A DNA stretch of 64,000 nt. Origin: an uncultured delta proteobacterium. GTDB taxonomy: Bacteria; Desulfobacterota; Desulfomonilia; Desulfomonilales; Desulfomonilaceae. The stretch spans positions 32,001 through 96,000 of the forward strand of contig CAWBKB010000001.1 of NCBI GenBank assembly GCA_963789265.1. Reading direction: 5' to 3'. The notes beneath the pieces were generated by a model. That model was not told where the DNA came from. It saw only the letters and a program-made list of their open reading frames with translations, and ran no database searches. Shown here one piece after another: positions 16,713 through 40,643 of this stretch (position 1 is the first letter of the stretch; every line of letters starts with the position of its first letter). The translations under genes and the position numbers were made by a program.

Positions 16713-18683
16713 ATGGCCGCAGAACAAAAGTTTCCCAAGCTGATGGAGCCGGGTGAGATCGCAAACTTGACCCTCAAAAACCGCGTCGTCTCCGCACCCA
16801 TGGTTACTGGGTACGCCACACGCGATGGAATGGTCACCGAACGACTGCTAAGGTTTTACGCGGAGAAGGCCAGAGGTGGAACCGGACTGATTGTCGTAGA
16901 GTATTCCTACATAGACCAGGAAGCCAGCAAGTCGGCCTATTGTCAACTCGGAGTATATGATGACGAATGTGTCATAGGTCTCGCTCAGTTGGCAGAATGC
17001 ATTCAGGAAAATGGGGCGAAAGCCTGTTTACAGATAGAGCATTGCGGAAGGCAGAAGTTCATTGGGACTTTCCCAATGGTAGCGCCCTCTCGTGTTCCCT
17101 GGGAGGCCCTCTTGGCAATGGGAGCCGTGATTCCAACTGAGCTCGGGATAGAAGAAATTCGGCACATAGTGGAATCCTTCGGCGATGCTGCACGCAGAAC
17201 CAAGCAGGCTGGTTTCGACATGGTCGAAATTCACGGGGCCCATGGATACTTGATCACCAACTTCCTCTCTCGCCACACTAATCGACGCACAGACATGTAC
17301 GGGGGCAGCCTCCATGAGAGGATGAGATTTGGCCTTGAGGTGGCAGAGAACGTCAGAAAAAAGGTGGGACCAAGCTACCCGGTCTGTATAAGGCTGAGCG
17401 GGACTGAATACATCGAAGATGGTGTCATGATTGAACATACCATAGCCTTTGCCAAGGAGTTGGAAAACATCGGGATCGACGTTTTCCACATCTCTGGAGG
17501 AAATCACCACACAATGCACTGCCAAGTGGTTCCGTCAAACCAACCTCTCGCTTTTAACGCGTGGGCTGCTGAAGCGGTGAAAATGGAAGTGAAGGCCCCT
17601 GTCATTGCCTCTGGTTCCATCACCAGCCCGGAACTGGCCGAAAGTATCCTGCGGGAAGGCAAAGGAGATTTCGTGTCTCTCGGCCGGCCTCTCGTTGCCG
17701 ACCCGTATTTCCCAAAGAAAGCGGAACTGGGTAACCCTGAGGAAATTCGTCATTGCGTGAGATGTAATCAGGGTTGTCTGCAAAAAGGGATTATGGCCGG
17801 AAAAAGTCTCATGTGTTCAGTTAACGTGGCTATTGGTAGAGAAGATCGGTTTGCGCGCCTGCAATACGATGAAAATGATCCTGCACCGCTATCAAAAAGC
17901 GTCTTCGTGGTAGGCGGCGGGCCGGGAGGCATGGAGGCAGCGCGAGTCGCGGCTCTGCGAGGGCATAAAGTTCAGCTCTTTGAAAAAAGGGAGCAACTGG
18001 GTGGGGCGCTTCTCGAGGCTTCTGTCCCTGAATTCAAACATGAGCTCAAAGACCTGATTGATTATCTGTCCAATCAGCTGAAAAGACTCAACGTGGATAT
18101 CCATCTGAACACCGAAATCACGGCAGCCCAAATTCTCAAGAAACGTCCCGACGCCGTCGTAGTTTCAGCCGGAAGCAAGCCGTCCATGCCGGAGATTCCT
18201 GGGATTGAGAGCGAAAACTGCATCAACGGCCTCGAAGTGTACAGGGGAAAAGACGTCGGTGAGACCGTGGTTATAGTTGGTGGCGGCATGCTTGGTTCCG
18301 AATTGGCCCTTCACCTCGCGGAGAAAGGGAAAAAGGTCATTCTGACTACCCGGCAGGAAAAGATCGCTTATGACATGGAGATGGCCCACTTCATTGTGTT
18401 CATGGGAAGACTTGCGAACTCAGGCGTCCAGGTTCACACCAACAAATTGCTGTCCCAAATTACTCCCGAGGGAGTTGTCATGCTGGATCTGGCAAGGCTG
18501 GGAGAGAGGACGGAAGTGAAAGCGGATACGATCATCGTCATGGGTGGTTTTCAACCAGATCAGAGTCTGTGCGAACAGCTCAACGGAAACGGACTGCAAG
18601 TTATACCCGTAGGTGACTGCAACCAACCTCGCGGCATCCACGAAGCCATATATGAAGGCCATCTAGCGGCCAGATCCATTTGA
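16713..18683 (+). CDS. Old-yellow-enzyme family NADH:flavin oxidoreductase (FMN barrel, [4Fe-4S], FAD domain)
   Basis: EIHGAHGYL, CVRCNQGC...C, GGGPGG Rossmann motif. Confidence 0.92.
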   Translation: MAAEQKFPKLMEPGEIANLTLKNRVVSAPMVTGYATRDGMVTERLLRFYAEKARGGTGLIVVEYSYIDQEASKSAYCQLGVYDDECVIGLAQLAECIQENGAKACLQIEHCGRQKFIGTFPMVAPSRVPWEALLAMGAVIPTELGIEEIRHIVESFGDAARRTKQAGFDMVEIHGAHGYLITNFLSRHTNRRTDMYGGSLHERMRFGLEVAENVRKKVGPSYPVCIRLSGTEYIEDGVMIEHTIAFAKELENIGIDVFHISGGNHHTMHCQVVPSNQPLAFNAWAAEAVKMEVKAPVIASGSITSPELAESILREGKGDFVSLGRPLVADPYFPKKAELGNPEEIRHCVRCNQGCLQKGIMAGKSLMCSVNVAIGREDRFARLQYDENDPAPLSKSVFVVGGGPGGMEAARVAALRGHKVQLFEKREQLGGALLEASVPEFKHELKDLIDYLSNQLKRLNVDIHLNTEITAAQILKKRPDAVVVSAGSKPSMPEIPGIESENCINGLEVYRGKDVGETVVIVGGGMLGSELALHLAEKGKKVILTTRQEKIAYDMEMAHFIVFMGRLANSGVQVHTNKLLSQITPEGVVMLDLARLGERTEVKADTIIVMGGFQPDQSLCEQLNGNGLQVIPVGDCNQPRGIHEAIYEGHLAARSI

Positions 18684-18715
18684 CACCGAGAAATAGCCTG
18701 CAAGGAGCGTGCAAA

Positions 18716-20797
18716 ATGAAGTACGTGGTCGGAGTAGACATAGGAGGAACATTCACTGATTTGGTCTGCGTCGATGAGGCCGGAGAGATTGCCATCGTAA
18801 AGACTCCCTCAACACCTGACGACCCATCCATTGCGGTCTTGAATGCTCTTCAAAGGGCAGCTGCTGAACTGGGACTCGAGTACAGTTCATTCCTTACCAA
18901 CATTACGCGCATATGTCATGGAACCACCGTGAGTACCAATACGGTGCTCACCTGGACTGGTGCAAAGGTCGGCTTTCTCACCACAAAGGGATTCAGGGAT
19001 ATCTTGGGGATGCGCTTTGGCATTAGAGAAACTCCCTATGACTACACGGTACCTAAGCCCAGATCGCTATCCCGAAGGTACCTGCGCGTCCCGGTTGAGG
19101 AGCGGATTAAATGGAATGGGGAGGTCATGGTCCCCCTCAACGAAGATGAGGTCAGAAAAGCGTGCAAGTACCTCAAAGAGCAAGGAGTTCAGGCGGTGGT
19201 CGTGGGATTTCTCTGGTCATTCAAGAATAATGCCCACGAGAACAGAGCCGTAGAGATATGTCGCGAAGAGCTTCCCGATGTATATGTTTGCTCGTCATGT
19301 GACATTCAGCCAGAGATTCGAGAATACTGGCGCTTCAGCACCGCGGTGCTCAGCGCCTATGTAGGACCGAATCTTTCGGGGTATATACATAATCTGGTGG
19401 AATCTCTTGATGGGGCCGGCTTCAAGGGAGAACTCCTCATCACGCAATCGAATGCCGGCGTCATTTCTCCGGAGCTTGCGGTTGAGCAGGCCGTCCGCAC
19501 AATCCTTTCTGGTCCAGCCTGTGGTCCGGCCGCCGCCGCCTATCTAGCTTCGCCCCTAAACATGAAGGATCTGATAACCGTAGACATGGGCGGCACGAGC
19601 TTCGACGTGTGTCTCATCAAAGACGGCCAGCCGGCCACAACCTTGGAGACAGCCGTTGCAGGTGTATACCACATGAGGCTCCCTATGATCGACGTTCATA
19701 CCATTGGAGCCGGCGGAGGCAGCATAGCATGGTTGGACAAAATGAATGTACTGCACGTCGGCCCTCAAAGCGCTGGCTCGGTCCCCGGTCCCGCATGCTA
19801 CGGCCGTGGGGGTACCGAACCGACGAGCACGGACGCGGACTTGATTCTGGGCTATCTTAACCCAGCGTTCTTTAATGGCGGAGAGATGGTTCTCGACGTT
19901 AGCTTGGCTGAAAGGGCTATCAAGGAAAAAATCGCAGATCCATTGGGGATAAACACAGTAGACGCGGCCAGAGCCATAAGAAAAATAGTTGATCACAACA
20001 TGTCGGACGCAATATCTACGGTTTCCGTGGAGAGGGGAGAGGATCCTAGAAAATTTACGCTCGTCGCGGCCGGTGGCGCAGGTCCGGTCCACGTGACGGA
20101 TCTGGCCAAGGACCTTGGTATTAAACAAATCCTCATCTCCAGAAGTTCTTCGATATTCTGTGCGATGGGGAGCATCATTGCAGATCTCAGGCACGATTTT
20201 GTCACCTCTGTGGTCACCAAGGCGAATGCCGCGGATCTTGATGCCATTAACGTAGCATACCTGGACATGCGGGCCATGGGAGACCGTTACCTTTCTCGCG
20301 AGGGCATTGCCGAGACGGATAGATATTACGAAAAATCGGTTGATATGAGATACAAGGGCCAATTCCATGAGGTTGAGCTTCCTTTACCCAAGGGTCCCCT
20401 CAGCGACGCCATGAGAGAATACATGGTAAACGGATTTCACAAGAAGCATGAGGATCTCTATGGGTACAGAGATGAGGTGGAGACGGAGGTCATCAACCTC
20501 CGTAGATCCTGTTACGGCAAGGTCGTAGTCCCCGAGAGAAAGGCTATGCCCTGGTCATCTCCGGATGCAAAGAAATTCATCAAAGGGAAAAGAGATGTTT
20601 ATTTTGAAGAAGAATTCGGTTTTGTTCCAACAAACATATTCGATGGGGATCGGATGCAGCCTGGAAACATTGTCGAAGGGCCTGCCATAGTTGAACAGAA
20701 AGCTACCACAGTGGTAGTTCCCCCGAAGGCCAGACTCGAGGTCACTACCTATGGCGATTATTTGCTGAGGTTGGGAGCCGCGGGCTATTCCCTTTGA
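18716..20797 (+). CDS. Hydantoinase/oxoprolinase family subunit A (ATP-binding)
   Basis: DIGGTFTD, HGTTVSTN, SGPA, DMGGTSFD, GAGGGS, GPACYGRGG. Confidence 0.94.
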   Translation: MKYVVGVDIGGTFTDLVCVDEAGEIAIVKTPSTPDDPSIAVLNALQRAAAELGLEYSSFLTNITRICHGTTVSTNTVLTWTGAKVGFLTTKGFRDILGMRFGIRETPYDYTVPKPRSLSRRYLRVPVEERIKWNGEVMVPLNEDEVRKACKYLKEQGVQAVVVGFLWSFKNNAHENRAVEICREELPDVYVCSSCDIQPEIREYWRFSTAVLSAYVGPNLSGYIHNLVESLDGAGFKGELLITQSNAGVISPELAVEQAVRTILSGPACGPAAAAYLASPLNMKDLITVDMGGTSFDVCLIKDGQPATTLETAVAGVYHMRLPMIDVHTIGAGGGSIAWLDKMNVLHVGPQSAGSVPGPACYGRGGTEPTSTDADLILGYLNPAFFNGGEMVLDVSLAERAIKEKIADPLGINTVDAARAIRKIVDHNMSDAISTVSVERGEDPRKFTLVAAGGAGPVHVTDLAKDLGIKQILISRSSSIFCAMGSIIADLRHDFVTSVVTKANAADLDAINVAYLDMRAMGDRYLSREGIAETDRYYEKSVDMRYKGQFHEVELPLPKGPLSDAMREYMVNGFHKKHEDLYGYRDEVETEVINLRRSCYGKVVVPERKAMPWSSPDAKKFIKGKRDVYFEEEFGFVPTNIFDGDRMQPGNIVEGPAIVEQKATTVVVPPKARLEVTTYGDYLLRLGAAGYSL

Positions 20798-20811
20798 TAC
20801 GGAGGAAAACA

Positions 20812-22596
20812 ATGACCCAGTCAGAAAAGTTCAGGCTAAAGAGTGATGCTGCGGATTTCTCAATCCTTACCTCGGCGATGTTCACCGTTGCCCGAGAAAT
20901 GGGCAAGAACATGGAACGCACGGCCCGAGCCCCTATCTATTTCGCCGCTCACGATTTTGTTACCACCATAATCACCCGGGATGCAGAGCTTCTCGCGCTT
21001 GCGGAATACATCCCTGTACTGATCGGGACTACACCTTTCGCAGTGAAGGCGGTCAAGGAGTATTTCGGCGAAGAGATTTACCAAGGGGACGTTTTTCTGT
21101 GCAATGATCCCTACACCCTTGATGGGGGGGGCCAATTGGCCGATTGGTGCATAGTGTATCCCGTATTTTGGAACAATAACCAGATACTCTGGATTGCGAA
21201 CAAAGCTCATCAACAAGATACCGGCGGTGGGGCGCCTGGCGGTTACAATCCGGCAGCCATCGATGTCTATGCTGAAGGCCTTCGGATTCCTCCGATAAAG
21301 ATTTTTGAAAAAGGAAAAGAGAGGAAGGACGTCTTCAATCTCATCATGACCAATGTCCGAATTCCTGAAACCCAGAGAGGTGATCTTTTATCCATGATCG
21401 GCTCTGCGAGAATAGGGGAAAGACGCATTGGGGCACTGTATGATACGTACGGTGAGAAGAAGATTGAGACGTTCATGGTTGATCTTCAGAACTACGGGGA
21501 ATTTATGATGAGAGAGGAGATCAGCAAAATCCCGGATGGCACTTATCGTAGCGAAATTAGTGGCAATGATGGGGCGTCTGCTGTGGTCTGCGACATGACC
21601 GTCCGTGGAAGCGACATCTCAGTGGACTTCAGTGAAAGTGGACCGATGTCCAGGCAATACATCAATAGTCCGCTCGCGAACACGGTGAGCTGTGTATACA
21701 TGGCGCTCATGACTTCTATCGGGAAGCGGATTCAATACCGTTGCGGCGGCTGTTACCGTCCCATAAAAATCGTCACCAAGCCGGGAACCATCACTCACGC
21801 AGTCTATCCGGTCACTCAGGGCAACTGTACCAACTTCATAGCCAAGCAAATCATTGAAGCATTTTGGAGTGCGGTCAGCCAGGCTGTGCCAACAGAGGCT
21901 CCTGCCGGGTGGGGGTCCATCAATTACTGGGTGTTTGCGGGCCTGGATCCGAGGCGTATGGAAGGATACGGGAGCCCGGATTTTCAGGGTTGCGCGAGCG
22001 GTGCGGGCGCAATCTGGGGCGTGGACGGATGGCCTACCAACGGCCCACAAATCTGCAGTGGAACCCTCTACTATCCAGAAATAGAAGTGGTTGAAGGTCT
22101 TTATCCGATAATCTGGGAAAAATGGCAATGGGCCACGGACTCCGGAGGGGCGGGCAAATGGCGCGGCGGATGTGGAGTAGACAACGTCTGGGTTTGTGAT
22201 TCGGATCCCGAACCCATGCATCTGGCTTATGCGGCGGACCCTTGTGACTACATCCCGGCCCCGGCGATCGCTGGAGGAAAACTTCCTGTTGCCAACTCTA
22301 AGAGTCTCGTTCTTGCCGGCGGAAAGGTGGAAACACCCGAAGAGGTCCGGATGAAAATGATTTACATGCTGCACACTGGCGACAAAGCGATCGATCTGGT
22401 TCAAGGAGGAGCCGGTGTCGGCGACCCTCTGGAGCGGGATGTTGAAGCAGTGAGAGAGGATGTCCGAGACCAGTTGGTTTCCCTGCAAAGCGCCAAAGAA
22501 GAATACGGCGTGATTATTGATCCGGCAACATGGGAGATCGACCCGGCGGCTACCGAAAAGCTGAGGAAAGAACTCATCGCTTTGCAGCAATCATGA
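20812..22596 (+). CDS. Hydantoinase B/oxoprolinase family subunit
   Basis: NDPY, HQQDTGG, EGLRIPP, DSGGAGKWRGG, GGAGVGDPLERD. Confidence 0.92.
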   Translation: MTQSEKFRLKSDAADFSILTSAMFTVAREMGKNMERTARAPIYFAAHDFVTTIITRDAELLALAEYIPVLIGTTPFAVKAVKEYFGEEIYQGDVFLCNDPYTLDGGGQLADWCIVYPVFWNNNQILWIANKAHQQDTGGGAPGGYNPAAIDVYAEGLRIPPIKIFEKGKERKDVFNLIMTNVRIPETQRGDLLSMIGSARIGERRIGALYDTYGEKKIETFMVDLQNYGEFMMREEISKIPDGTYRSEISGNDGASAVVCDMTVRGSDISVDFSESGPMSRQYINSPLANTVSCVYMALMTSIGKRIQYRCGGCYRPIKIVTKPGTITHAVYPVTQGNCTNFIAKQIIEAFWSAVSQAVPTEAPAGWGSINYWVFAGLDPRRMEGYGSPDFQGCASGAGAIWGVDGWPTNGPQICSGTLYYPEIEVVEGLYPIIWEKWQWATDSGGAGKWRGGCGVDNVWVCDSDPEPMHLAYAADPCDYIPAPAIAGGKLPVANSKSLVLAGGKVETPEEVRMKMIYMLHTGDKAIDLVQGGAGVGDPLERDVEAVREDVRDQLVSLQSAKEEYGVIIDPATWEIDPAATEKLRKELIALQQS

Positions 22597-22736
22597 CCCT
22601 GACTCGAGCCGAGATTGGCCATGGCCTGCCTCCGGCCATGGCCGCATGGTTGGCGGACTTACGAGGCCACATGGTTGCAATTGGCCAAAGCACCTCTTGG
22701 CGCAGCGAAGGTGCCAACAACTGACAGGGGAGCATC

Positions 22737-24341
22737 ATGGTAGTTGGTGATGAATTGCGCAGGAGCTTTGAGAATCACCCCGACAAGCTTGCCATAAAGG
22801 ATATGTATGGTAAGCACTTTCCTGAGGGTTTCAATTTCACTTATCGGGAACTTTTTGAATCGGTCAATCGCCTCGCCAATGGCTTTCTTGCTATAGGCCT
22901 ATCAAAGGGGGACAGACTTGCTGTTCAGACTGGAACTGGAATTGGTCACATAGTTACTTTGCTTGCTGCCGCCAAGTTGGGACTAGCCTTCACACCCATC
23001 GACCGGTCCAACATGGCTGATGAAATCACGTATCTTGTCCAAGATAGTGGTGCCAGAGCGCTTGTGGTTGATGCCGACATATACTCAGCAAAAATTGCTC
23101 CCATCAAACAGAGACTGAATTCAGTTCAATTTTATGTTGGCATAGGGGAAGACCATCCATGTCAATTCGACTTTGACACACTTTTGAAAGAAGCGCCTGC
23201 CGATGAGCCGCAAGTGGAAGTCAACGAGGACGACATAGTAACCCTTATTTATACCAGCGGGACGACAGGAAAACCCAAGGGCGTACCCCTGACTCACCGG
23301 AACTGGACATTAAGTGCCTACATGTGGGCAGCCGAACTGGGAGTCCACCCCTATACCAAATGGCTTCTTGTAATGCCGCTGCACACCTCCGGTGGCACTG
23401 GTCTGAGCCTAGCCTCTGCCATCCGAGGGTGTTCCCTTATAGTAACCAATCCAGATCCCAAGAAGATTCTGCATTTGATCGAGAAAGAAGGAATCACATT
23501 TACACAGTTTAGCCCCACCCTGCTTGCCAATGTGATAAGGCATCCCGATGCCAAGAACTGTGATTTCTCAAGCATAGAACACTGGTTCACCTCAGCCGCG
23601 CCCATCTCAGCCGAACTGTTGAAGGAAGGGGCCCAATGCTTCGGAGAAAAGTTCACTCAGCTTTTTGGTACCACCGAAACAGCTCTGTTGGGTACGGTTC
23701 TGCGTCCAGAGGACGTGTCGGTTGAGGGTACGCTCTCCAAGAGGCTTACTTCCATCGGGAAGGCCTGTTTGGGCTACAAGACTAAAGTTATAGACATTGA
23801 TGGCAACGAGGTTGTAGCGGGCGGTTCGGGGGAATTGCTCATTAAAGGCGTGGGAGTGGCGAATTCGTACTGGAAAAAACCCGAGGCGGACGATTTCAAA
23901 GATGGATGGTGGCATTCCGGGGATATTGTAAGGATCGATGAGGACGGATTCTACTACGTAATTGACCGAATGAAAGACATGATCCTCACTGGCGGTATGA
24001 ACGTATATCCTAGGGAAATTGAGGAGGTCATAGCAGACCATCCTGCTGTCCACCTTGTCAGTGTAGTCGGGGTTCCGGATGACAAGTGGGGCGAAAGCGT
24101 GAAGGCTGTCGTCGTCCTTAAAGAAGGAGCCGAAATAACCGAAGAAGAGATCATTGAACATTGCAAGGCACGACTGGCTTCCTACAAGAAACCCAAGTCC
24201 GTAGATTTTATAAATATTGCCGAAATGCCAATGTTGGGCGGAGGATACAAGATAAAAAAAAGAGAGCTGAGAGAAAGGTACCGCAAAGAGTATGAGAAGG
24301 CCAAGGGAGCAAACATCGAAAGCTGGGGAGCAGCCTCGTGA
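22737..24341 (+). CDS. Acyl-CoA synthetase (AMP-forming)
   Basis: YTSGTTGKPKG, FGTTE, SGD, DRMKDMILTGG. Confidence 0.93.
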   Translation: MVVGDELRRSFENHPDKLAIKDMYGKHFPEGFNFTYRELFESVNRLANGFLAIGLSKGDRLAVQTGTGIGHIVTLLAAAKLGLAFTPIDRSNMADEITYLVQDSGARALVVDADIYSAKIAPIKQRLNSVQFYVGIGEDHPCQFDFDTLLKEAPADEPQVEVNEDDIVTLIYTSGTTGKPKGVPLTHRNWTLSAYMWAAELGVHPYTKWLLVMPLHTSGGTGLSLASAIRGCSLIVTNPDPKKILHLIEKEGITFTQFSPTLLANVIRHPDAKNCDFSSIEHWFTSAAPISAELLKEGAQCFGEKFTQLFGTTETALLGTVLRPEDVSVEGTLSKRLTSIGKACLGYKTKVIDIDGNEVVAGGSGELLIKGVGVANSYWKKPEADDFKDGWWHSGDIVRIDEDGFYYVIDRMKDMILTGGMNVYPREIEEVIADHPAVHLVSVVGVPDDKWGESVKAVVVLKEGAEITEEEIIEHCKARLASYKKPKSVDFINIAEMPMLGGGYKIKKRELRERYRKEYEKAKGANIESWGAAS

Positions 24342-24426
24342 AGTGGGGCCGCGTGACGAGCCTGTGACTATGGTATACGCAGACTCTCGGACACGATCCG
24401 TGGCTCTCACAGACTAGGAGCCTGCA

Positions 24427-25572: not shown

Positions 25573-25897
25573 AAGACGCCCGGGGAGGAAGGCGCAGGGG
25601 CACGAAGTTTCTTGACCCACAGCTCATCGCGTGGCCGTATCCGATGAAACTTGTGGGCCGTGCCACTTAACAGCGCTAGCTCTGCGCGGTCTCCTTTGAG
25701 AACGGTGACACCTGGACTCACGTTTAAGACCCAGGGCGACGTGCCACGCGGGTGGCCGCCGCATAGCATTATCCAGAGACCGTTTTCGACCAATCGTATG
25801 ATACCAGCCCACAACGCAAGAATATTGGAAAGCCGGTTTCCGACCCAGTTCTCGACGGTTTTGAATCCGCAGCGTTTAGAGAAGTAGTTTATGAGAC

Positions 25898-25969
25898 CGC
25901 ATAAATAGATCTCGCATAAATAGATCTCAGGAATAGGGAGTGATGTGTCAACAACACTGTCAACAACAC
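25898..25969. repeat. Two adjacent perfect tandem duplications (15 bp x2 and 12 bp x2)
   Basis: CGCATAAATAGATCT at 25898 and 25913; TGTCAACAACAC at 25946 and 25958. Confidence 0.9.
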
Positions 25970-25986
25970 AAGAAGGAGGTCGGAAA

Positions 25987-27393
25987 ATGGATGCGAAAGT
26001 CAGATTGGCGGAGGTCGCGGATTCTCTGACGGAAATTGGCTCAAGTGAAGAAAAGATGGAGGATTATGCTCTCAGAAGCGTTCCCGACCACTTCAGGAAC
26101 ACCAAGGCAGCCAACATGGCAATGTTCGGCATCCCCATGTGCATGTACTATCTTGCAGTGGGGAGCCTCAGCGTCGCCCTTGCCGGCTTTTGGATGGGCC
26201 TGCTCGCGTCGCTCTTAGCCTACATGGTGTTTTGTCTTTTCTCAATGAGCTTCGGCTACGTCTCTTGGAAAGGAGGGTACTCTTTCGACATGATTGCGCG
26301 GTTCAGTTGGGGAAAGACAGGCTCCTTCTTGCCATCCCTTTTGGGGACCTATCTTCTCATGTCCTTTTGGGCCATGGAAACCTACTGGCTGGCGACAGCA
26401 CTCAAAACAGTCTGGCCGGATCTGAGCCTGTGGTTCTACTTCCTCCTTCTGCTTCCCCTCTTCATAGTGGTTCCGCTGTACGGGCATCGGGCCATGGCCA
26501 ATTTCAACTATATCGCGGTACCTGTCGGGGTGGCCGCCACCGCCTATGTACTCATCTACTTCTATGGAATGAAAGACTTCACTGTCTCCGGGATCATGGC
26601 AATGACCCAAAAGCCCTTGATCCCCGGGGGCTTCGGGGCAGCCCTAGATTGGTCCCTTGCGGCCGTTGGGCTTTGGGGACTCACGGCGGGTGATTTCGGT
26701 CGGTTCATTCAAAAGGAGCATAAGCAGTGGGCCCTTGGGTTCGGACCGTTTCAGGGTGCATTTTGCCACATTGTGTTCCCGGTTCTAGGTATATTCATAG
26801 TCTTTCCCATGATCCAGATCCTTACTCCCCAAATCGGGGCCGAGAAGGCCGGGATGGCTGCCCTCAGCGCTTCCGTACCGTTCGTCATGGCAATGGGCCT
26901 GGTGGGAGCCCTGATGGTCATCACCTACCAGTTGCATATTCAGTTCATCAATGCCTATTTGCCTTCTGTGAATCTAGCCAACTTCTTCTCCGTAGTCTTC
27001 GGTGTGGAACCTGGGAGGAAATGGTGGGTGGTGATTGTCAATCTGGCCGGCCTTGGTCTTCTTGCGATGGGCATTATTGGATGGATCACCCAATGGGCCT
27101 GGGTCGCTGGTCTCACTTTGGGTACTGCTTGCGTGATATCGATTTCAGACATGGCATATCGCGCGTACAGAGGCATGGCAACAGAGTACGAGGAACTGCC
27201 GAGAAATATGCGGAAAGTGAATCCAATCGCCTTTATCGTCTTCTTCATCAGCGTTGGCGTAGGTATTCTGGATAAGCTTTGGTGGAAGTTTCTTCCGTCT
27301 CCATCGTTGATGGCGTACCCGATAGCGTTTGTCCTTTACTGGATCATTTCTGCCGCAGGCAGTGGCAGATTTCAGCAGGACGTCGCCCAGTAG
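25987..27393 (+). CDS. NCS1-family (cytosine/purine/hydantoin) permease
   Basis: EDYALRSVP N-terminal motif, DFGRF, INAY, about 12 hydrophobic segments; GGAGG RBS. Confidence 0.8.
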   Translation: MDAKVRLAEVADSLTEIGSSEEKMEDYALRSVPDHFRNTKAANMAMFGIPMCMYYLAVGSLSVALAGFWMGLLASLLAYMVFCLFSMSFGYVSWKGGYSFDMIARFSWGKTGSFLPSLLGTYLLMSFWAMETYWLATALKTVWPDLSLWFYFLLLLPLFIVVPLYGHRAMANFNYIAVPVGVAATAYVLIYFYGMKDFTVSGIMAMTQKPLIPGGFGAALDWSLAAVGLWGLTAGDFGRFIQKEHKQWALGFGPFQGAFCHIVFPVLGIFIVFPMIQILTPQIGAEKAGMAALSASVPFVMAMGLVGALMVITYQLHIQFINAYLPSVNLANFFSVVFGVEPGRKWWVVIVNLAGLGLLAMGIIGWITQWAWVAGLTLGTACVISISDMAYRAYRGMATEYEELPRNMRKVNPIAFIVFFISVGVGILDKLWWKFLPSPSLMAYPIAFVLYWIISAAGSGRFQQDVAQ

Positions 27394-27553
27394 GAGGACA
27401 TTCGTAAGCATTCACTTACGTGCGGTGAAAAATTGTCATTGCGAGTCAAATGACACGGGACAGAAAGTTGGCCACGTAAGTGAATGATTACAGCTAACCT
27501 GATTATATACTTGACGAGCTGTGAAGTTTAAAATCCGATTCGGAGAGTCACAC

Positions 27554-28576
27554 ATGCGTTTGCCTTCTTTCGCCTACCATGCGCCGCACAGCCTGGATCA
27601 AGCATTGAAAATCAAGGGGGAACTTGGCACGCAGGCCGCGTTTCTTGCCGGCGGTACCGATCTTATAGTGAATCTTAAACATCGGCTTTCTTCCCCCTCA
27701 GCCCTCGTCAGTTTACGGAATATCAAAGAGATCAAAGGGATCGAAGTCAAACCCGATGCCGTGATCGTAAAGGCGGCAACCTCCCTGATAGAGATAAAAA
27801 GCAATGAGGCTGTTCGCACTCACTTCCCTATCCTCGTGAAGGCCGTAGAATCCATAGGTGCGCTGGGGATCCAGGGTTTTCGAGGCACGATAGGGGGAAA
27901 TCTTTGTCTGCAACCTCGCTGTATCCTCTATAACCAGTCGCTCTTCTGGCGGACCGGCAAAACAAAATGCCACCGAACAGGAGGCAAAGAGTGTCTTGCC
28001 CTTCAGGGCTCCGAATCGTGCAACTCCATCTGCTCGGGCGACACTGTCCCGGTGCTGGCGGCCTTGTCCGCGCAACTTTCTATCGCAGGGAGCGGCGGCC
28101 AAAGGACGGACCCGGTGGCGGATTTCTTCACGAACAAGGGAGAAAGTCCTTTTAATCTTGCTCCGGATGAGATTGTAACCGCGATACGAATACCCATCCC
28201 GTGGGCGCCGATGTCCTGGTCCTATCAGCGTCTTAGTCTCAGGTCCGCAGTTGATTTTCCTCTCGTCAACGCGGCCGCAGCGGCGATAATTGACAAGGGA
28301 AGAGTTGAAAGCTTCCGGCTAGTACTTTCCGCTCTAGGCCCGGGACCTCTGGTACTCAAAGAAGCTGAAGCCATTGTGAGAGGGAGAAAACCGGATAACG
28401 CAATGGTCCATGAAGCAGGCGAGATCGCTCGGCGAACCGCAGAAGGCGTGGTTGTTGAGAATGCTGTAACTTCCAAAGCCTACAGAGTCAAGATGGCCGC
28501 GGTTATGGCTAGGCGGGCCGTAGAAGAGGCGCTAGCTCTTGGTTCATCTCAGTCCGCGGTAATTGAGGGTCAATAA
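27554..28576 (+). CDS. Xanthine-dehydrogenase-family FAD subunit with HcrB-type Cys-rich [4Fe-4S] insert
   Basis: AGGTDL, TIGGNLCLQPRCILYNQS..WR...C...C...C, RSAVDFP. Confidence 0.88.
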   Translation: MRLPSFAYHAPHSLDQALKIKGELGTQAAFLAGGTDLIVNLKHRLSSPSALVSLRNIKEIKGIEVKPDAVIVKAATSLIEIKSNEAVRTHFPILVKAVESIGALGIQGFRGTIGGNLCLQPRCILYNQSLFWRTGKTKCHRTGGKECLALQGSESCNSICSGDTVPVLAALSAQLSIAGSGGQRTDPVADFFTNKGESPFNLAPDEIVTAIRIPIPWAPMSWSYQRLSLRSAVDFPLVNAAAAAIIDKGRVESFRLVLSALGPGPLVLKEAEAIVRGRKPDNAMVHEAGEIARRTAEGVVVENAVTSKAYRVKMAAVMARRAVEEALALGSSQSAVIEGQ

Positions 28577-29067
28577 TGAAGAAACAGCTCGTTACTATGA
28601 CCGTCAACGGCAATGAAATCGAGATTGCCGTGACCCCCAACAGCACGCTGCTGGAAGTTCTTCGCGACGAGCTTGGCTTCACGGGCGTCAAGGAAGGTTG
28701 TTCCGAAGGCGTGTGCGGAGCGTGTACCGTTCTCCTGGACGGAGCGCCGGTAAGGTCGTGCCTCACACTGGCCCTTGAAGCCGAAGGCACGTCCATCACC
28801 ACTATTGAGGGACTCGCTTCTGATGGGAGGCTCCACCCTGTTCAGCAGGCATTCATAGATCACGGGGCTGTCCAGTGCGGATTCTGCACTCCGGGTATGA
28901 TACTCTCGTCCAAAGCGTTGCTGGATAGGAGCCCTCATCCCACGGATGAAGAGATCAAGACTGCTCTGGCCGGCAATTTTTGCCGATGCACGGGGTACAA
29001 AAAGACTCTTGAGGCAGTTCGGTCCGTGGCGAGACAAAATACCACAGAGACGGGCGAGAAAGGTTAA
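28576..29067 (+). CDS. Xanthine-dehydrogenase-family 2x[2Fe-2S] subunit (HcrC/CoxS-like)
   Basis: GCSEGVCGACTV, QCGFCTPG, GNFCRCTGY. Confidence 0.95.
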   Translation: MKKQLVTMTVNGNEIEIAVTPNSTLLEVLRDELGFTGVKEGCSEGVCGACTVLLDGAPVRSCLTLALEAEGTSITTIEGLASDGRLHPVQQAFIDHGAVQCGFCTPGMILSSKALLDRSPHPTDEEIKTALAGNFCRCTGYKKTLEAVRSVARQNTTETGEKG

Positions 29068-29077
29068 CCAACACAGC

Positions 29078-29266
29078 GTCAGTAGGACCGGCATCTTGCC
29101 GGTCAAGAGGTTTAAAACAATTGACCGGCAAGATGCCGGTCCTTCTGACACTATGGGGCGCCCTTGGGCATATTGCCCGTCGTCATGCCCGCGAACGCGG
29201 GCATTCAGACTGGACCCCGGATCGAAGTCCGGGGTGACGAATGACCGGCAAGATGCCGGTCCTACT
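29078..29266. repeat. Composite REP-like palindrome cluster (three GTAG-type units plus one CGTC-type unit)
   Basis: GTAGGACCGGCATCTTGCCGGTC at 29082, inverted copies at 29121-29149 and 29242-29266; CGTCATGCCCGCGAACGCGGGCAT...GGGGTGACG at 29181-29239. Confidence 0.85.
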
Positions 29267-29360
29267 GTGGCAATGGAGCCACGTCGATCACCAGGAAAAT
29301 GCCGCCGAGTTTGAAAAGTGAATTACTTGGTCCCATCTGAACCAGTCGGAGGCGAAGACA

Positions 29361-31700
29361 TTGCCTGAGTACAGTCTCATCGGGAAAAGCATCCCCCGCG
29401 TTGACTCTCTGCCCAAGGTTACAGGCGAGGCGATTTTCACGGCGGACTTGAGCCTTCCCAAGATGCTAGTGGGTAAGATACTGCGCAGCCCTTATCCCCA
29501 TGCCCGAATCCTTGACGTTGACACGTCAAAGGCTCGGCAGCTTCGTGGGGTTCAGGCGGTGGTAACGGGCAAGGATACCGCAGGGGAAAAGTGGGGCGTA
29601 TTCAGGTACACGTGGGACCAGCAACTGCTCTGCGTAGACAAGGTCCGATACGTTGGAGACGAGGTCGCGGCCGTTGCCGCCGTTGATGAGGATACGGCCC
29701 TGGAGGCGCTCAGCCTTATCCAGGTCGATTACGAAGAATTGCCCGCAGTTTTTGACTGTCATTCCGCGTTAGCCCCGGACGCGGCTTTGCTTCACGACGA
29801 ATATGCGCATAACGTTAACGTCGCTGTTAACATTGATGTCGGTAACGTGGATGCGGCATTCAAAGGATGCGCATTGATTCGCGAGGACACCTTTGTAGCG
29901 GAAGAAGACTCGTACTTCATGATCGAACCTTACGCGGTGGTGGCAAGTTATCACGCAGACGGTTCGATTGAAGTCTGGATGCCGAACGCGTCTCCGCACA
30001 CCAAAGCCAAAGCATTATCGAATGCGCTACAATTGCCCCTTTCAAAGGTAAACGTTCGTAAGATCACAATCGGCGGTGCTTTTGGGGGTCGATCCGACGT
30101 TTTTCCTGCGGAATTCATTACCTGCCTCCTCAGCATAAAGGCTCAAAGGCCGGTCAAGCTAGTTTACTCCCGTGAAGAGAACTCCATTGCCACCCGCATG
30201 GGTCATGCAATGATTACCACAATAAAGACCGGCGTGGACAAAGCAGGTAAAGTTCTGGCAAGAGACATTGTTTCGTATCTGGATGGCGGGGCATATTCCA
30301 GTACCGGTCCCATCGCGACATCCGTCCCTTTCTTGTGCCACGAGCAGACGTACAGAATGGACAATGTCCGATTCCGAGGCTATCGCATCTATACGAACAA
30401 GCCGGTCAGAGGAATGATCCGTATTCACGGCAGATCGTTTGCATGCGGGATTGACACGCAATTGGACATGATTGCCGAGCAATTGGGGATCGACCCGGTG
30501 ACGATCCGGCTCCGTAATGCACGGCGACCGGGCGAAACGACTCCCACCGGTTCGTACGTGGCGAGCTGCGGTCTCGTGGAGTGCATAGAAAAGACAGCGG
30601 CCGAGAGCAAATTCATTGAGAAATTCCGCAATCCTGCTCCTAACCGCGGAATCGGCATGGGTCTGAATTCGGTGCAAACCGGATTCCCCTTGGGGATTCG
30701 CGGCGGTTCCCAGGCGTTCATAAAGTTTCATGAAGATGGTGGGGCCACTGTGATTTCAGGGGTCGTGGACAACGGTCAGGGAAACGACAACATGCTGGTT
30801 CAGATCGCTGCCGAGGAGCTTGGGCTTCCGCTTGAAGATATCCGGCTCATATCCGCGGACACGGAAGTCACCCCAACTGATGCAGGCTCGTATTCCATGA
30901 TTTCCACGTTTGGCGGAGGGAACACGGTAAAGACGGCAGCAGCAGATGCCAGGACTCAGCTCTTCGAGGTAGCCTCGGACATGCTCGAAGCCGATCCCGC
31001 GGATCTGGTGGCCAAGGACGGGAAAATATATGTCAAGGGCGCTCCAGGCACCGGTATTTCCATTGCCAAGGTCGTGCGCAGGGCGTTGATCATGGGCCGA
31101 CCGATAATGGGGCGAGGTGCATTTTCACCAAAGGTGGACCAGCGACGAGAGTGGATAACGAATCCTAAAGGTCAACTCTCGCAGGCGTTTTCGTTCGGTG
31201 CGACAGTTACAGAGGTTGAAGTGGACCCCGAAACAGGCCAGGTCAAGGCGCTTGAAGTTACGTGCGCTCAGGACTGCGGCTTCACGTTGAACCCTCTGGT
31301 GGTGGAAGGGCAGTTTGAGGGCGGAGTGGCAATGGGAGGCCAAGGCGGCATGCTCGCCGAGGAGCATCGCTGGAGCCAGGGGCACCTATTAAATCCCACA
31401 ATGCTCGAATACAAGATCCCAATAATAAAGGACATGCCCAATATCAAGCCGATCATCGTGGAATCCATAGATCCAAGTGGTCCGTACGGGGCCAAAGAAG
31501 CCGGCATGTCCATCGCAATGTCGGCAGCCCAGGCATACTGCAACGCTGTGAGTAAGGCCCTTGGGATCTATTTCAACCACTACCCTTTGACGCCCGAGCG
31601 AATCCTGGACGCAATCGAGAACAAGAAGCCCGGCATACATACAGCTTGGGAATTTGAGCCCGCCAGAGTAATCGAACGTGAGGGGTGCGGCCGGAAGTGA
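29361..31700 (+). CDS. Xanthine-dehydrogenase-family molybdopterin subunit (HcrA/CoxL-like)
   Basis: RSPYPHARI, IGGAFGG, GGAY, GQG, EVEVDPETG, GQFEGG, GPYGAKE; TTG start after GGAGG. Confidence 0.92.
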   Translation: MPEYSLIGKSIPRVDSLPKVTGEAIFTADLSLPKMLVGKILRSPYPHARILDVDTSKARQLRGVQAVVTGKDTAGEKWGVFRYTWDQQLLCVDKVRYVGDEVAAVAAVDEDTALEALSLIQVDYEELPAVFDCHSALAPDAALLHDEYAHNVNVAVNIDVGNVDAAFKGCALIREDTFVAEEDSYFMIEPYAVVASYHADGSIEVWMPNASPHTKAKALSNALQLPLSKVNVRKITIGGAFGGRSDVFPAEFITCLLSIKAQRPVKLVYSREENSIATRMGHAMITTIKTGVDKAGKVLARDIVSYLDGGAYSSTGPIATSVPFLCHEQTYRMDNVRFRGYRIYTNKPVRGMIRIHGRSFACGIDTQLDMIAEQLGIDPVTIRLRNARRPGETTPTGSYVASCGLVECIEKTAAESKFIEKFRNPAPNRGIGMGLNSVQTGFPLGIRGGSQAFIKFHEDGGATVISGVVDNGQGNDNMLVQIAAEELGLPLEDIRLISADTEVTPTDAGSYSMISTFGGGNTVKTAAADARTQLFEVASDMLEADPADLVAKDGKIYVKGAPGTGISIAKVVRRALIMGRPIMGRGAFSPKVDQRREWITNPKGQLSQAFSFGATVTEVEVDPETGQVKALEVTCAQDCGFTLNPLVVEGQFEGGVAMGGQGGMLAEEHRWSQGHLLNPTMLEYKIPIIKDMPNIKPIIVESIDPSGPYGAKEAGMSIAMSAAQAYCNAVSKALGIYFNHYPLTPERILDAIENKKPGIHTAWEFEPARVIEREGCGRK

Positions 31701-31794
31701 GCAAACCTACTGGTACCAGGCCAAACTTCCGCAGTACTAGCCTGCGTCTCTTCTGCCCGCACTAAGAGCAGGCCTTTCGCAGAGAGGATTCGCG

Positions 31795-32241
31795 GTGAAA
31801 GTAAAAGAAATCGATCACATTTGCTTCGCAGTCCACAGTGTGGACGAAGCCCGCAAGGTCTACGAAGGAATTATGGGACTGGAACCGGCGTGTGAGTATA
31901 TCGCTGAGGAGGAGTCCATACGAGTAATCCGGTACTATGTAGGAACAGTGGCAGTGGAGATCATGGAACCTACTGATTCAACGTGTGAAGTCGCCTCATT
32001 TCTGGAGCGCAAGGGTGAGGGCTGTTTTCTCATCTCGTACCGGGTTAACGACGTGGCCGGGGCCCTCGACGAAATTCAAGCCGCAGGACGTCAGACCATA
32101 GATAGGGAGCCGCGCCACCTTATGGGGAACCGGTACGCGTTTATCGATCCGCCTAAGGTGTTGCACGGGGTCCTCGTAGAGATATTGGACGGGGAATTCA
32201 TCAATCCCGCGTCCAGCGACGAGCCAGTGAACCGTCTCTGA
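31795..32241 (+). CDS. VOC family protein (epimerase/glyoxalase-like)
   Basis: IDHICFAV...VEIMEP...KGEG...HGVLVE. Confidence 0.85.
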   Translation: MKVKEIDHICFAVHSVDEARKVYEGIMGLEPACEYIAEEESIRVIRYYVGTVAVEIMEPTDSTCEVASFLERKGEGCFLISYRVNDVAGALDEIQAAGRQTIDREPRHLMGNRYAFIDPPKVLHGVLVEILDGEFINPASSDEPVNRL

Positions 32242-33302: not shown

Positions 33303-33317
33303 TTAAAAGACCGTAAT

Positions 33318-40606: not shown

Positions 40607-40643
40607 AGTAGCAGACCTTGTGTTGGGAGCTGTTGCCTGGATC

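Follow-up and report, generated by a model that had tools for sequence, protein, structure and literature searches.

The 64,000-nucleotide stretch of DNA from an uncultured delta proteobacterium, a member of the Desulfomonilaceae related to sulfate reducers, that was analyzed here (the window; C1:32001-96000) carries an operon that is so far undescribed and that is joined here to the molybdenum (Mo) enzyme of the anaerobic auxin, or indoleacetate (iaa), pathway. A full-text literature search found no paper on such an operon. As the initial annotation had described, all of its listed genes are present in one co-oriented run on the + strand, from 16713 to 32241. The run is built of two units. 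In unit 1 (16713-25572), genes for a FadH/NCR-type OYE, HydA, and HydB are followed by those for a CoA ligase of FadD type and an acyl-CoA dehydrogenase (ACAD) with no catalytic Glu, while unit 2 (25945-32241) encodes an NCS1-like permease, a three-subunit Mo enzyme, and a VOC protein. The operon is conserved and probably opens a ring amide at the expense of ATP, passing the product into CoA-dependent breakdown. We interpret the cluster as catabolic, with unit 1 as a counterpart of the iaa pathway that does without a mutase and unit 2 as a lineage-specific add-on copied from an iaa-type locus, an interpretation whose chances of being right or wrong we would put about level.

The first gene of unit 1 (16713..18683, + strand) encodes an Fe-S flavoprotein ene-reductase of the FadH/2-naphthoyl-CoA reductase (NCR) class of OYE, as shown by Pfam (Oxidored_FMN, 1.3e-74; Pyr_redox_2, 5.8e-30) and by its best solved relatives, NCR (6qkg, 349 bits) and then FadH (279). 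The FMN barrel, Cys cluster motif (CX2CX3CX12C), and pyridine-nucleotide-disulfide-type domain of this class are all present. Overlaps of 4 bases join the OYE gene to HydA and HydA to HydB. HydA (18680..20797, + strand; Pfam Hydantoinase_A, 2.6e-90), a member of what we call clade W, and HydB (20794..22596, + strand; Pfam Hydantoinase_B, 6.1e-127) are the predicted large and small subunits of an ATP-dependent lactamase, and they display the two-subunit plan of that family, with the N and C domains of Hydantoinase_A plus Hydantoinase_B. In NCBIfam, HydA scored 720.8 bits to CapA (cut-off 1000) vs. 430 to ApcC, and HydB scored 403.7 bits to CapB vs. 118.2 to ApcD. Among solved structures, HydA matched 6yra_A at 502 bits vs. 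401.6 for the Apc subunit 5l9w_B, and HydB matched CapB (6yra_B) at 331.8 bits vs. 109.6 for Apc and 53.9 for acetone carboxylase. The comparison with carboxylases thus supports a pair that is lactamase-like more than carboxylase-like, as first proposed. HydB has three of the four residues of the Asp-His-Asp-His metal site (CapB D41, H99, D102, and H124) and also keeps Y136; H99 is replaced by Gln, which occupies this position throughout clade W and in the genome's own paralogue on contig C5. Alternatively, HydAB could be an ATP-dependent ketone carboxylase, in which case the OYE would act on an enone, reducing it, and the ligase on the resulting beta-keto acid, activating it. Common superfamily membership and the HydA match to Apc agree with this, and the V4R sensor and AtoS/AtoC-like regulators described below would fit a hydrophobic ketone. 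However, we regard it as very unlikely, since HydB is much nearer to CapB, there are two subunits only and the gaps between the genes leave no room for a gamma subunit, sister clades of HydAB occur in iaa-type clusters, and an ACAD would be superfluous after a beta-keto acyl-CoA.

The remaining genes of unit 1 encode an AMP-forming acyl-CoA ligase (22737..24341, + strand; AMP-binding, 3.3e-75) of FadD/MenE rather than PaaK type (NCBIfam PRK06187, 420 bits; PDB FadD13, 259.6, and feruloyl-CoA synthetase, 242) and an ACAD (24427..25572, + strand) with the three ACAD domains of Pfam. The canonical catalytic base of ACADs, the Glu of the YEG motif, is absent from the latter (V-A-G-G); in the alignment, VAGGT stands opposite the IYEGT of 5lnx and 4l1f, and the Glu-less motif is retained in all orthologues. 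Asp244 and Arg245 occur in 120 of 120 homologues (94 with GGG and 26 with AGG), and Asp244 presumably lies at the place of the alternative base of isovaleryl-CoA dehydrogenase. Since the canonical base is missing, the enzyme may not be a plain dehydrogenase, which weakens its earlier assignment to beta-oxidation. These Glu-less ACADs form a new family that recurs beside Mo enzymes; Mo enzymes of the XO family have a ligase and ACAD of this type next to them in L050, L055, L056, and the genome's own L043 locus.

Unit 1 would be a sigma-54 operon that is turned on by the adjoining kinase and regulator. The V4R sensor that had been placed over the run was confirmed upstream as a histidine kinase (12613..14823, + strand) with the Pfam order V4R-GAF-PAS-HisKA-HATPase, although its V4R score of 31.3 bits compares with a cut-off of 31 (GAF_2, 3.1e-22; PAS_9, 9.1e-15; HATPase_c, 5.1e-23). 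It is followed by a sigma-54-dependent response regulator of the NtrC/AtoC type (14884..16170, + strand; Pfam Sigma54_activat, 1e-64, Response_reg, and HTH_8) that scored 421 bits against NCBIfam AtoC, under the cut-off of 714. Kinase orthologues (71-81% identity) lie upstream of the core genes in L036, L039, and L041. A motif scan located two perfect palindromes, TGAAA-N5-TTTCA, at 16218-16232 and 16251-16265 (+ strand), the only perfect ones in the window, where the motif has 8 matches vs. 2.62 expected and where 0 of 100 shuffles reached 8. The pair is conserved in L036, L037, and L041 and is likely an activator binding site. A putative sigma-54 -24/-12 element, TGGCACAGTTCTTGA (16349..16363, + strand), has one mismatch, and its aligned counterpart is retained in the same three relatives; the motif is without enrichment across the window (56 found vs. 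60.8 expected). Ahead of the permease gene, scans of the window for the two motifs found neither an activator site nor a sigma-54 element.

Conservation differs between the two units. All 5 Desulfomonilaceae relatives whose flanking sequence is long enough have HydA, HydB, ligase, and ACAD together, an intact OYE is present in 4 of 6, and the permease, Mo enzyme, and VOC protein follow this core in 1 of 5 only. The exception is the closest relative, L036, which keeps the two-unit arrangement at 81-90% protein identity; elsewhere the flanks of the core are unrelated or contain transposases. The co-conservation implied by the initial annotation therefore holds for HydA-HydB-ligase-ACAD but not for all twelve genes. 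Outside the family, HydA at identities of at least 60% occurred in 2 of 400 sampled genomes, both with HydB, ligase, and ACAD, and clade W comprises 2 of the 400 together with six Desulfomonilaceae species. In G306, ligase orthologues of 64-65% identity adjoin HydAB, and a PreA-like/GltD-like pair resembling dihydropyrimidine dehydrogenase takes the place of the OYE; a second design in the same genome, on contig C302, brings together HydAB, a 65% ligase, a 69% ACAD, a racemase, and a canonical Mo enzyme. The proposed ene reduction gains from the presence of this pair where an ene-reductase is expected. That HydAB is an ordinary 5-oxoprolinase with unrelated neighbors, which would agree with its family membership only, is scarcely credible, given the rarity of its clade, the translational coupling of HydA to the OYE, the ligase and ACAD always alongside, and the dedicated sigma-54 switch over the operon.

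Unit 2 begins with the permease gene (25945..27393, + strand). Searches of its product against Pfam at E 0.001 gave zero matches, including to PF02133 (NCS1), the NCBIfam cytosine permease model matched weakly (E 1.7e-5; 23.8 bits vs. a cut-off of 326), and an ESM-Atlas feature search returned purine-cytosine/allantoin permease clusters at 0.97; we therefore call it NCS1-like, divergent. Among the relatives compared, only L036 has an orthologue (90%), and the permease/Mo gene order is repeated in this second MAG. The permease/Mo junction is spanned by an independent run contig (27311-27831) with zero differences. The FAD subunit of the Mo enzyme (27521..28576, + strand) carries the ~39-residue, four-Cys insertion of 4-hydroxybenzoyl-CoA reductase (4-HBCR) beta, and its Cys residues align with C122, C138, C146, and C155 of 1rm6_B, which we take to be the [4Fe-4S] ligands. 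All 11 FAD subunits from Met-type enzymes have this loop, and none of the 4 from canonical enzymes does. Next are the 2x[2Fe-2S] subunit (28576..29067, + strand; Pfam Fer2_2, 2e-34, and Fer2) and the Mo subunit (29361..31700, + strand), which was identified by TIGR03194 and PDB matches (4-HBCR 1rm6_A, 449 bits vs. about 256 for quinoline 2-oxidoreductase). Between these two genes lies a 166-base repeat-element insertion (29091..29256, unstranded) that is missing from the second Mo copy in the genome, where the gap is 12 bases; run X2 has a joint that skips the 166 bases, and depth there is high in 4 of 4 runs. By sequence the Mo enzyme is 4-HBCR-like, not quinoline-oxidoreductase-like, at scores under the 4-HBCR equivalog cut-offs (TIGR03194, 663.5 vs. 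994.55; TIGR03195, 213 vs. 404.55; TIGR03193, 193.3 vs. 257.8). In place of the hydroxylase motif G-A-K-G-x-G-E it has GAKEAGMS, with Met for the catalytic Glu, a form that was found in 114 of 120 homologues; Glu holds this position in CoxL, 6-hydroxypseudooxynicotine dehydrogenase, Qor, and 4-HBCR, and in the XO family it is thought essential for hydroxylation. Of 401 genomes sampled from the phylum, 64 have a member of this Glu-less subfamily. Finally, the VOC protein (31795..32241, + strand; Glyoxalase_4, 9.1e-15), encoded by a single-copy gene, is methylmalonyl-CoA-epimerase-like (TIGR03081, 79.8 bits; cut-off, 114.95).

The analogy with indoleacetate catabolism drawn by the initial annotation proved closer than could then be seen, since the Mo enzyme and VOC protein are orthologous to those of the widespread iaa-type clusters. 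An iaa operon gene set has been predicted in sulfate reducers, as given in passages of PMC8360864, and loci were called iaa-type by matching this set, not by comparison with Aromatoleum proteins. In eight such loci of the same phylum, orthologues of the Mo enzyme (54-66%) and VOC protein (53-58%) accompany a mutase, CoA-transferase, PaaK-type ligase, GGG-motif ACAD, and ETF, and in L064, L065, L066, and L071 VOC orthologues of 53-61% identity adjoin a Met-type Mo enzyme. The window enzyme shares with these the Met/Leu-for-Glu motif of the Mo subunit and the loop of the FAD subunit. The proteins of unit 1 stand further off: the ACAD has AGG and not the GGG-for-YEG of the IaaF type (36-41% to the ACADs of L061 and L068), the ligase is of FadD/MenE type whereas IaaB is of PaaK type and iaa-type loci have PaaK-like genes, and HydA is not an IaaCE orthologue. 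Clade W stands apart in the identity matrix, and its nearest neighbors are clades of iaa-type clusters at 44-50% identity; window HydA shares 44-45% identity with clade I-1, of which the genome has its own copy on contig C5, and 36-38% with clade I-2. A mutase gene is adjacent in 17 of 27 loci with HydA matches of 44-47% identity. In the window, domain and profile searches found neither the B12 acyl-CoA mutase IaaGH nor the CoA-transferase IaaL. The earlier statement that the window has no B12 mutase is thus correct, but it does not extend to the genome, in which the nearest mutase matches begin at C1:118463, outside the window, and a B12 mutase and CoA-transferase lie 2.1 Mb away beside a near-identical second Mo copy (L042).

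These genomic data also bear on whether the two units are merely juxtaposed, i.e., whether unit 1 degrades a Mo-independent lactam while permease, Mo enzyme, and VOC protein are a displaced part of a scattered iaa-type pathway. The genome's iaa-type genes are indeed scattered, with iaa-type HydAB, an IaaF-like ACAD, and ETF elsewhere, and since the genome's single VOC gene and its only intact Mo copy are in the window, these may serve that pathway instead. Because the FAD subunit of the L042 copy is truncated, it may be the window copy that functions in iaa. In the family member G239, as in L042, the Mo genes are natively beside mutase and CoA-transferase genes and not beside unit 1, and the adjacency of the units in one of five relatives and the lack of a regulator site ahead of the permease point the same way. 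However, the units share a strand, inspection of the intergenic sequence showed no convincing terminator between ACAD and permease, a second MAG has the same arrangement, and similar ligases and ACADs stand beside XO-family Mo enzymes in the four loci named above. We consider juxtaposition a serious but rather unlikely explanation.

The proposed hydroxylation beside a ring N, as a step of the same pathway as unit 1, is supported in part only. The enzyme is 4-HBCR-like, and since its Mo subunit is without the hydroxylase Glu, the sole basis for this role is what the literature assigns to the enzyme in iaa, where work by Ebenau-Jehle in 2012 is said to have given the Mo enzyme a hydroxylation. 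The enzyme might instead be a reductase that removes a ring substituent from the end product, e.g., converting 2-aminobenzoyl-CoA to benzoyl-CoA, after both unit 1 and iaa routes. Its closest relative is 4-HBCR, all 11 such enzymes examined have the ferredoxin-facing [4Fe-4S] loop, all iaa-cluster orthologues examined have Met or Leu for Glu, and three of nine iaa-type loci have an extra Mo enzyme with canonical Glu, a possible hydroxylase. However, the iaa pathway needs oxidation at C2, and at least five of the nine loci have the Met-type enzyme alone in the stretch compared, which, with the reported hydroxylation role, makes a reductase quite improbable. For Desulfatiglans anilini, passages of PMC7500099 describe proteins annotated as 4-HBCR that are induced on aniline/4-aminobenzoate, and propose a 4-aminobenzoyl-CoA reductase, which fits such a reductase.

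Ene reduction, ATP-driven lactam opening, CoA ligation, and dehydrogenation, as originally proposed, are still the best reading of unit 1, with a CapB-like HydB and a co-conserved core. The ene-reductase would saturate a ring C=C conjugated to the amide, the two-subunit lactamase would open the thermodynamically stable lactam, the ligase would convert the ring-opened amino acid to its CoA thioester, and the Glu-less ACAD would introduce a 2,3 double bond; the order might also be CoA ester first, as in iaa, rather than free lactam first. General beta-oxidation could then yield (amino)benzoyl-CoA for the genome's benzoyl-CoA pathway, of which Oah and Had are present above curated cut-offs. If the Mo enzyme oxidizes C2 beside the ring N, as the literature has it for iaa, unit 2 would make the unoxidized heterocycle usable. 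Our most economical guess at the substrate is 2-quinolinone/quinoline, for which the predicted route is 3,4-dihydro-2-quinolinone to 3-(2-aminophenyl)propionyl-CoA to 2-aminocinnamoyl-CoA; the last is the product of IaaF. The genes for anaerobic indole and quinoline degradation are described as unknown or as a black box in passages of PMC6221969 (2018) and PMC7193041 (2020). Unit 1 is a candidate for such anaerobic N-heterocycle degradation genes and offers five expressible genes with a clear prediction. A bolder proposal, with a slim chance of holding in both parts, is that unit 1 supplies the missing genes for anaerobic degradation of quinolinone-type benzo-lactams (ene reduction, ATP ring opening, CoA ligation, and a Glu-less arylpropionyl-CoA dehydrogenase) and that the Glu-less [4Fe-4S] Mo enzyme is the never-identified reductive deaminase of 2-aminobenzoyl-CoA to benzoyl-CoA, not a ring hydroxylase. 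The true role of an iaa-linked Mo subfamily that has lost the hydroxylation Glu and kept a reductase-type Fe-S loop merits a biochemical look.

Several known systems resemble parts of the cluster. The OYE is like NCR (6qkg) and FadH in its FMN barrel, four-Cys cluster motif, and FAD/NAD(P)H domain, but its best NCBIfam score, 485.7 bits, is under the equivalog cut-off of 793. Caprolactamase CapAB of Pseudomonas jessenii, a member of the ATP-dependent lactamase family according to passages of PMC8453981, has the two subunits and domains of HydAB and gives its best NCBIfam and PDB matches; however, HydAB is under the CapAB equivalog cut-offs (NF050156/NF050157; 720.8 and 403.7 vs. 1000), has Gln for His99, and lacks the vicinal Cys410-Cys411 pair, and the route after it would use CoA and an ACAD, whereas a transaminase follows CapAB. 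HcrABC of Thauera aromatica (1rm6), the best match for both the Mo and FAD subunits, shares with the Mo enzyme the three subunits and the four-Cys [4Fe-4S] insertion but has GAKEASEG where GAKEAGMS has lost the Glu. Qor (1t3q), like other N-heterocycle hydroxylases of the XO family, has the same superfamily and subunit plan, but it matches at just 255.7 bits, its FAD subunit lacks an Fe-S loop, and its Glu is kept (GIKGMGES). The reductive pyrimidine route shares the logic of unit 1, i.e., reduction of a C=C beside a ring amide followed by hydrolysis, and the G306 pair with HydAB, ligase, and ACAD parallels its dihydropyrimidine dehydrogenase; unit 1 differs in its predicted HyuA/HyuB-type, ATP-dependent hydrolase and in handling the product as a CoA ester. 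The iaa pathway of Aromatoleum aromaticum/Azoarcus evansii likewise combines an XO-family Mo enzyme and a two-subunit hydantoinase-type hydrolase with a CoA ligase and an ACAD whose YEG Glu is absent. In contrast to it, the window operon is without B12 mutase, family III CoA-transferase, and PaaK-type ligase, its HydAB (36-45% identity) falls in a different clade and its ACAD (36-41%; AGG with Asp244-Arg245 vs. GGG) in a different family, and the OYE ene-reductase and NCS1-like permease are additions.

All twelve co-oriented genes that the initial annotation had assigned to this run are present in the window, with limits at exactly 16713 and 32241. Unit 1 (16713-25572) comprises OYE, HydA, HydB, CoA ligase, and ACAD, and unit 2 (25945-32241) a permease, the Mo enzyme, and a VOC protein. 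The window corresponds to C1:32001-96000 of the host genome (G000; 6.06 Mb in 9 contigs), whose named relatives are Desulfomonilaceae MAGs. Pfam and NCBIfam searches identified an OYE of FadH type (656 residues; FMN barrel plus pyridine-nucleotide-disulfide-type domain) whose translation contains CX2CX3CX12C, hydantoinase A and B subunits, an AMP-forming CoA ligase, an acyl-CoA dehydrogenase (ACAD), a xanthine-oxidase-family enzyme in three parts (FAD, 2Fe-2S, and Mo subunits), and the VOC protein at the end of the run. Among solved structures, OYE was nearest to 2-naphthoyl-CoA reductase (349 bits; FadH, 279 bits), and the ligase was of FadD type (FadD13, 259.6 bits; feruloyl-CoA synthetase, 242 bits). 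The permease is a membrane protein with zero Pfam matches and no meaningful match among solved structures; it scored 23.8 bits against the NCBIfam cytosine permease model (cut-off 326) and grouped with purine-cytosine/allantoin permeases in an Atlas feature search (0.97), so that it is NCS1-like at most.

Upstream of unit 1 are genes for a kinase that combines GAF and PAS domains with a borderline V4R match (31.3 bits, cut-off 31), and for a sigma-54 response regulator. Two perfect TGAAA-N5-TTTCA palindromes (16218 and 16251) lie between the regulator and OYE, and a sigma-54 -24/-12 element, TGGCACAGTTCTTGA, follows ~100 bases downstream at 16349. The palindrome occurred 8 times in the window versus 2.62 expected, a count that no shuffle reached; its N6-spaced form gave nothing relevant, the sigma-54 motif was not enriched across the window, and promoter and terminator scans remained at chance level. 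Palindromes and -24/-12 element align in three Desulfomonilaceae loci (L036, L037, and L041) and fail to align in L038 and L040, both of which lack kinase and regulator. Neither kind of site was found ahead of the permease or the Mo genes.

To judge conservation, six Desulfomonilaceae loci (L036-L041, with L037 cut) whose HydA is 86-93% identical to that of the window were compared. The initial annotation had described one co-oriented run; co-conservation held for HydA-HydB-ligase-ACAD, the core, which was present in all five loci with room for it, but not for the permease and Mo genes, which followed the core only in L036, one of the five loci with at least 4.9 kb downstream. OYE was intact in four of the six loci, a remnant in L039, and absent from L041; kinase and regulator were found in three of the six, with a partial regulator at the cut end of L037, and the other flanks held unrelated genes or transposases. 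Across 400 evenly sampled genomes of the phylum plus G000 (401 in all), some HydA homologue occurred in 181, and identity reached at least 60% in only two, G315 (68%) and G306 (61%), the next being 49% among the matches listed. The G306 locus has HydA-HydB-ligase (64%)-ACAD (68%), and lacks OYE; after the ACAD come genes for a PreA-like protein (137.8 bits against a cut-off of 335), then for a GltD-like Fe-S flavoprotein and a sigma-54 PAS activator. In G315 the order is TetR gene, second HydAB pair, ligase, HydAB, OYE (53%), and, at the contig end, ACAD. Unit 1 is thus a module conserved across the relatives and these two genomes. As G306 shows, a dihydropyrimidine-dehydrogenase-like system can take the place of the ene-reductase, and the PreA-like/GltD-like pair found there would support reduction of a C=C bond beside a ring amide.

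The ATP-driven lactam opening first proposed for HydAB agrees with the profile scores. HydA scored 720.8 bits against the NCBIfam caprolactamase alpha model (cut-off 1000) versus 430 for acetophenone carboxylase. HydB is the subunit that discriminates among family members, and its scores (CapB, 331.8 bits; N-methylhydantoinase, 168; Apc, 109.6; acetone carboxylase, 53.9) mark the pair as lactamase-like rather than carboxylase-like. Asp41, Asp102, His124, and Tyr136 of CapB are kept in HydB; however, the metal ligand His99 (residue roles as described in PMC8453981) is replaced by Gln, as it is throughout HydB's clade. Judged by bit scores and an identity matrix, HydA proteins fell into clade W (window, L036, L041, G315a, and G306a; 61-93% identical to the window protein), clade I-1 (contig C5 of G000, L061, L064, and L065; 44-45%), clade I-2 (L063, L066, L067, and L068; 36-38%), and clade X (G315b and G306b; 46-47%). 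Since a mutase gene lies within 1.5 kb of HydA in 17 of the 27 loci with 44-47% HydA matches, the common HydAB of the phylum is that of the anaerobic indoleacetate (iaa) type, with clade W as a rare sister. The C5 pair, which is followed by a GGACT-like gene, was considered as a 5-oxoprolinase; this was rejected on its 67%/79% identity to HydAB from an iaa-type cluster and on the split PaaK-like gene that follows it.

The Mo genes are duplicated. Positions 27538-29090 and 29257-31667 match a second genomic copy (L042; C1:2151092-2155067) at 99.4% and 97.6% nucleotide identity, respectively. The FAD subunit of L042 is truncated to 280 residues; a PaaK-like ligase, the large subunit of an acyl-CoA mutase, and a family III CoA-transferase lie on one flank and a split ligase on the other. 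B12 mutase is absent from the window, as first observed, but the genome does encode one. G239, another member of the family, has an L042-like arrangement with a Mo subunit 83% identical, and the mutase/CoA-transferase arrangement of both is the native Mo context. The two copies look like a recent duplication or gene conversion with one copy decaying. The 166 bases inserted at 29091-29256, absent from the second locus, contain three GACCGGCAAGATGCCGGTC-like palindromes and are probably a small dispersed repeat element. Metagenome reads, which yielded short contigs only and none spanning the run, were consulted at two places, the junction of permease and Mo genes and the joint at the 166 bases; the insertion had high depth in all four runs.

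A Mo enzyme unrelated to any HydAB had been considered, given its absence beside the core in four of five relatives, and was dropped after a phylum-wide survey of the Mo subunit. A Mo subunit at least 50% identical occurred in 64 of the 401 genomes, and in at least 17 of the 63 others the contig also had a HydA homologue no more than 25 kb away. Eight of these loci were compared. All had the Mo enzyme (54-66% identical to the window/L042 protein); by labels, seven had HydA (36-45%), the exception being L062, where one long reading frame has the label HydB alone. Acyl-CoA mutase (64-72% to L042) was present in seven, CoA-transferase (46-53% to L042) and PaaK-like ligase (26-28% to L042) in five each, VOC (53-58%) in three, and a GGG-motif ACAD with ETF (36-41%) in L061 and L068. 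PMC8360864 describes iaa operons with this set of genes, including the GGG signature of IaaF and an extra ETF in strict anaerobes; we call these loci iaa-type from gene set, and NCBIfam returned no iaa-specific model for the proteins submitted. In G000 the iaa-type parts are scattered: C1:2.146-2.155 Mb; C5:193-199 kb (clade I-1 HydAB and a split PaaK-like gene); C6:382962-385321 (an IaaF-like ACAD, 52%, and ETF alpha); and, in the window, the genome's sole VOC. It is possible, then, that unit 2 serves this scattered route rather than working with unit 1.

Among solved structures, the Mo subunit matched 4-hydroxybenzoyl-CoA reductase (4-HBCR) alpha best (449 bits), with only 256-267 bits to CoxL, 6-hydroxypseudooxynicotine dehydrogenase, Qor, and nicotinate dehydrogenase; it does not belong with the quinoline oxidoreductases. 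The FAD subunit shares with 4-HBCR beta an insertion of ~39 residues, with Cys at all four aligned positions. The C-terminal active-site motif is GAKEAGMS, with Met where Glu is kept in CoxL (GAKGIGES), the nicotine-pathway enzyme (GAKGLGEI), Qor (GIKGMGES), and 4-HBCR itself (GAKEASEG). Since the Met form was common to 114 of 120 homologues (66-92% identity; the motif pattern left the other 6 unresolved), loss of Glu is not decay. All Mo subunits of iaa-type loci that the pattern resolved had Met or Leu at this place (L067b gave no match), and L066, L067, and L071 have a canonical-Glu enzyme in addition. Glu was kept in four paralogous Mo subunits (L043 and L044 of G000, L050 of G306, and L056 of G360), L045 giving no pattern match. 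The four-Cys loop was found in 11/11 associated FAD subunits versus 0/4 canonical ones, and a search of plasmids gave no match to the Mo subunit. The enzyme may either oxidise, in line with the hydroxylation first proposed, or reduce; the precedent for the latter, a reductive role for 4-aminobenzoyl-CoA in Desulfatiglans anilini, is itself a proposal (PMC7500099). Just past the window end, L045 (G000:C1:96001-112000) encodes a Mo enzyme with the four-Cys loop in its FAD subunit; a PaaK-like ligase and an ABC transporter come next, and the locus may be the genuine 4-hydroxybenzoyl-CoA-reductase-type one.

The ACAD also departs from its family. It aligned end to end with butyryl-CoA-dehydrogenase-like structures, and since their IYEGT is VAGGT here, the canonical catalytic Glu is missing. 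The change is preserved in all orthologues; among 120 homologues, the motif is GGG in 94 and AGG in 26, and Asp244 and Arg245 are invariant in 120/120. Orthology of the window ACAD with IaaF, considered because 94 of its relatives carry GGG, was rejected since the ACADs within iaa-type loci share only 36-41% identity with it and have no Asp244-Arg245; a further point against it is a 57% identical GGG relative on a Massilia plasmid, in a context with neither mutase nor hydantoinase. That operon (Massilia putida plasmid NZ_CP019037.1, 20276-49379) also encodes a CoA ligase, ETF, hydratase, hydroxyacyl-CoA dehydrogenase, thioesterase, and gentisate-type ring-cleavage enzymes, suggesting that the Glu-less family also serves aerobic aryl side-chain oxidation. 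An Atlas search with the ACAD returned generic ACAD clusters only. In G306 (C302), clade X HydAB, ligase (65%), ACAD (69%), an Asp/Glu/hydantoin racemase, and a canonical Mo enzyme occur together; ligase and ACAD of the window family adjoin xanthine-oxidase-family Mo enzymes in L055 and L056, as does the ACAD in L043. The link of ACAD family, ligase, and Mo enzyme is thus not peculiar to the window. In L043 (G000:C1:1106001-1126000), a glycyl radical enzyme and its activase lie next to the canonical-Glu Mo enzyme, to a MoeB/ThiF-like gene, and to an ACAD with the GGG motif that shares 59% identity with that of the window.

Beyond the run, ~48-base repeats resembling the 3' part of a tRNA (T arm, CCA) at 33255-33312 and 37621-37667 bracket four genes (VOC-like, DUF6790, alpha/beta hydrolase, and GFO/IDH/MocA). 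Further copies occur at C1:108316, C1:129541, and C3:16464; ARAGORN found no whole tRNA within the window, and the repeats may be remnants of integration sites. A second catabolic cluster (38600-50146) contains a FadH-type OYE (minus strand), CoA ligase, short OYE, Amidohydro_2 protein, ChsH2-like OB-fold protein, enoyl-CoA hydratase, and ACAD, then a branched-chain-type ABC transporter. The genes for a periplasmic binding protein (54260-55734) and a molybdopterin (DMSO-reductase-family) oxidoreductase (55572-58602) each consist of two overlapping reading frames, suggestive of frameshifts or of errors in the assembly.

The most likely substrate of unit 1 is a ring amide, which would be reduced, opened, converted to a thioester, and dehydrogenated. 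In gene order, C=C reduction would be followed by ring opening, CoA thioester formation, and dehydrogenation. Unit 1 could equally act on CoA esters, with the ligase first, rather than on free compounds, an order found in the revised iaa scheme (scheme in PMC8360864). With 2-quinolinone as substrate, the steps of the ring-amide route would fit one to one. A lower benzoyl-CoA pathway is encoded in G000 (Oah, 553.6 bits, cut-off 464.45; Had, 462.5 bits, cut-off 338.65). A full-text literature search found no description of such an operon; PMC6221969 calls the anaerobic indole mechanism a black box, and for anaerobic quinoline degradation the relevant parts of PMC7193041 name a single isolate and report no genes. 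The Mo enzyme, 4-HBCR-like yet lacking Glu, and the ACAD family, in which the catalytic Glu is also missing, both merit biochemical study. We file the cluster as a variant of an iaa-like N-heterocycle route, in which unit 1 would most likely be a sibling of the iaa route with no need for a carbon-skeleton rearrangement; from 2-quinolinone its end product would be 2-aminocinnamoyl-CoA, the compound that PMC8360864 gives as the product of IaaF.
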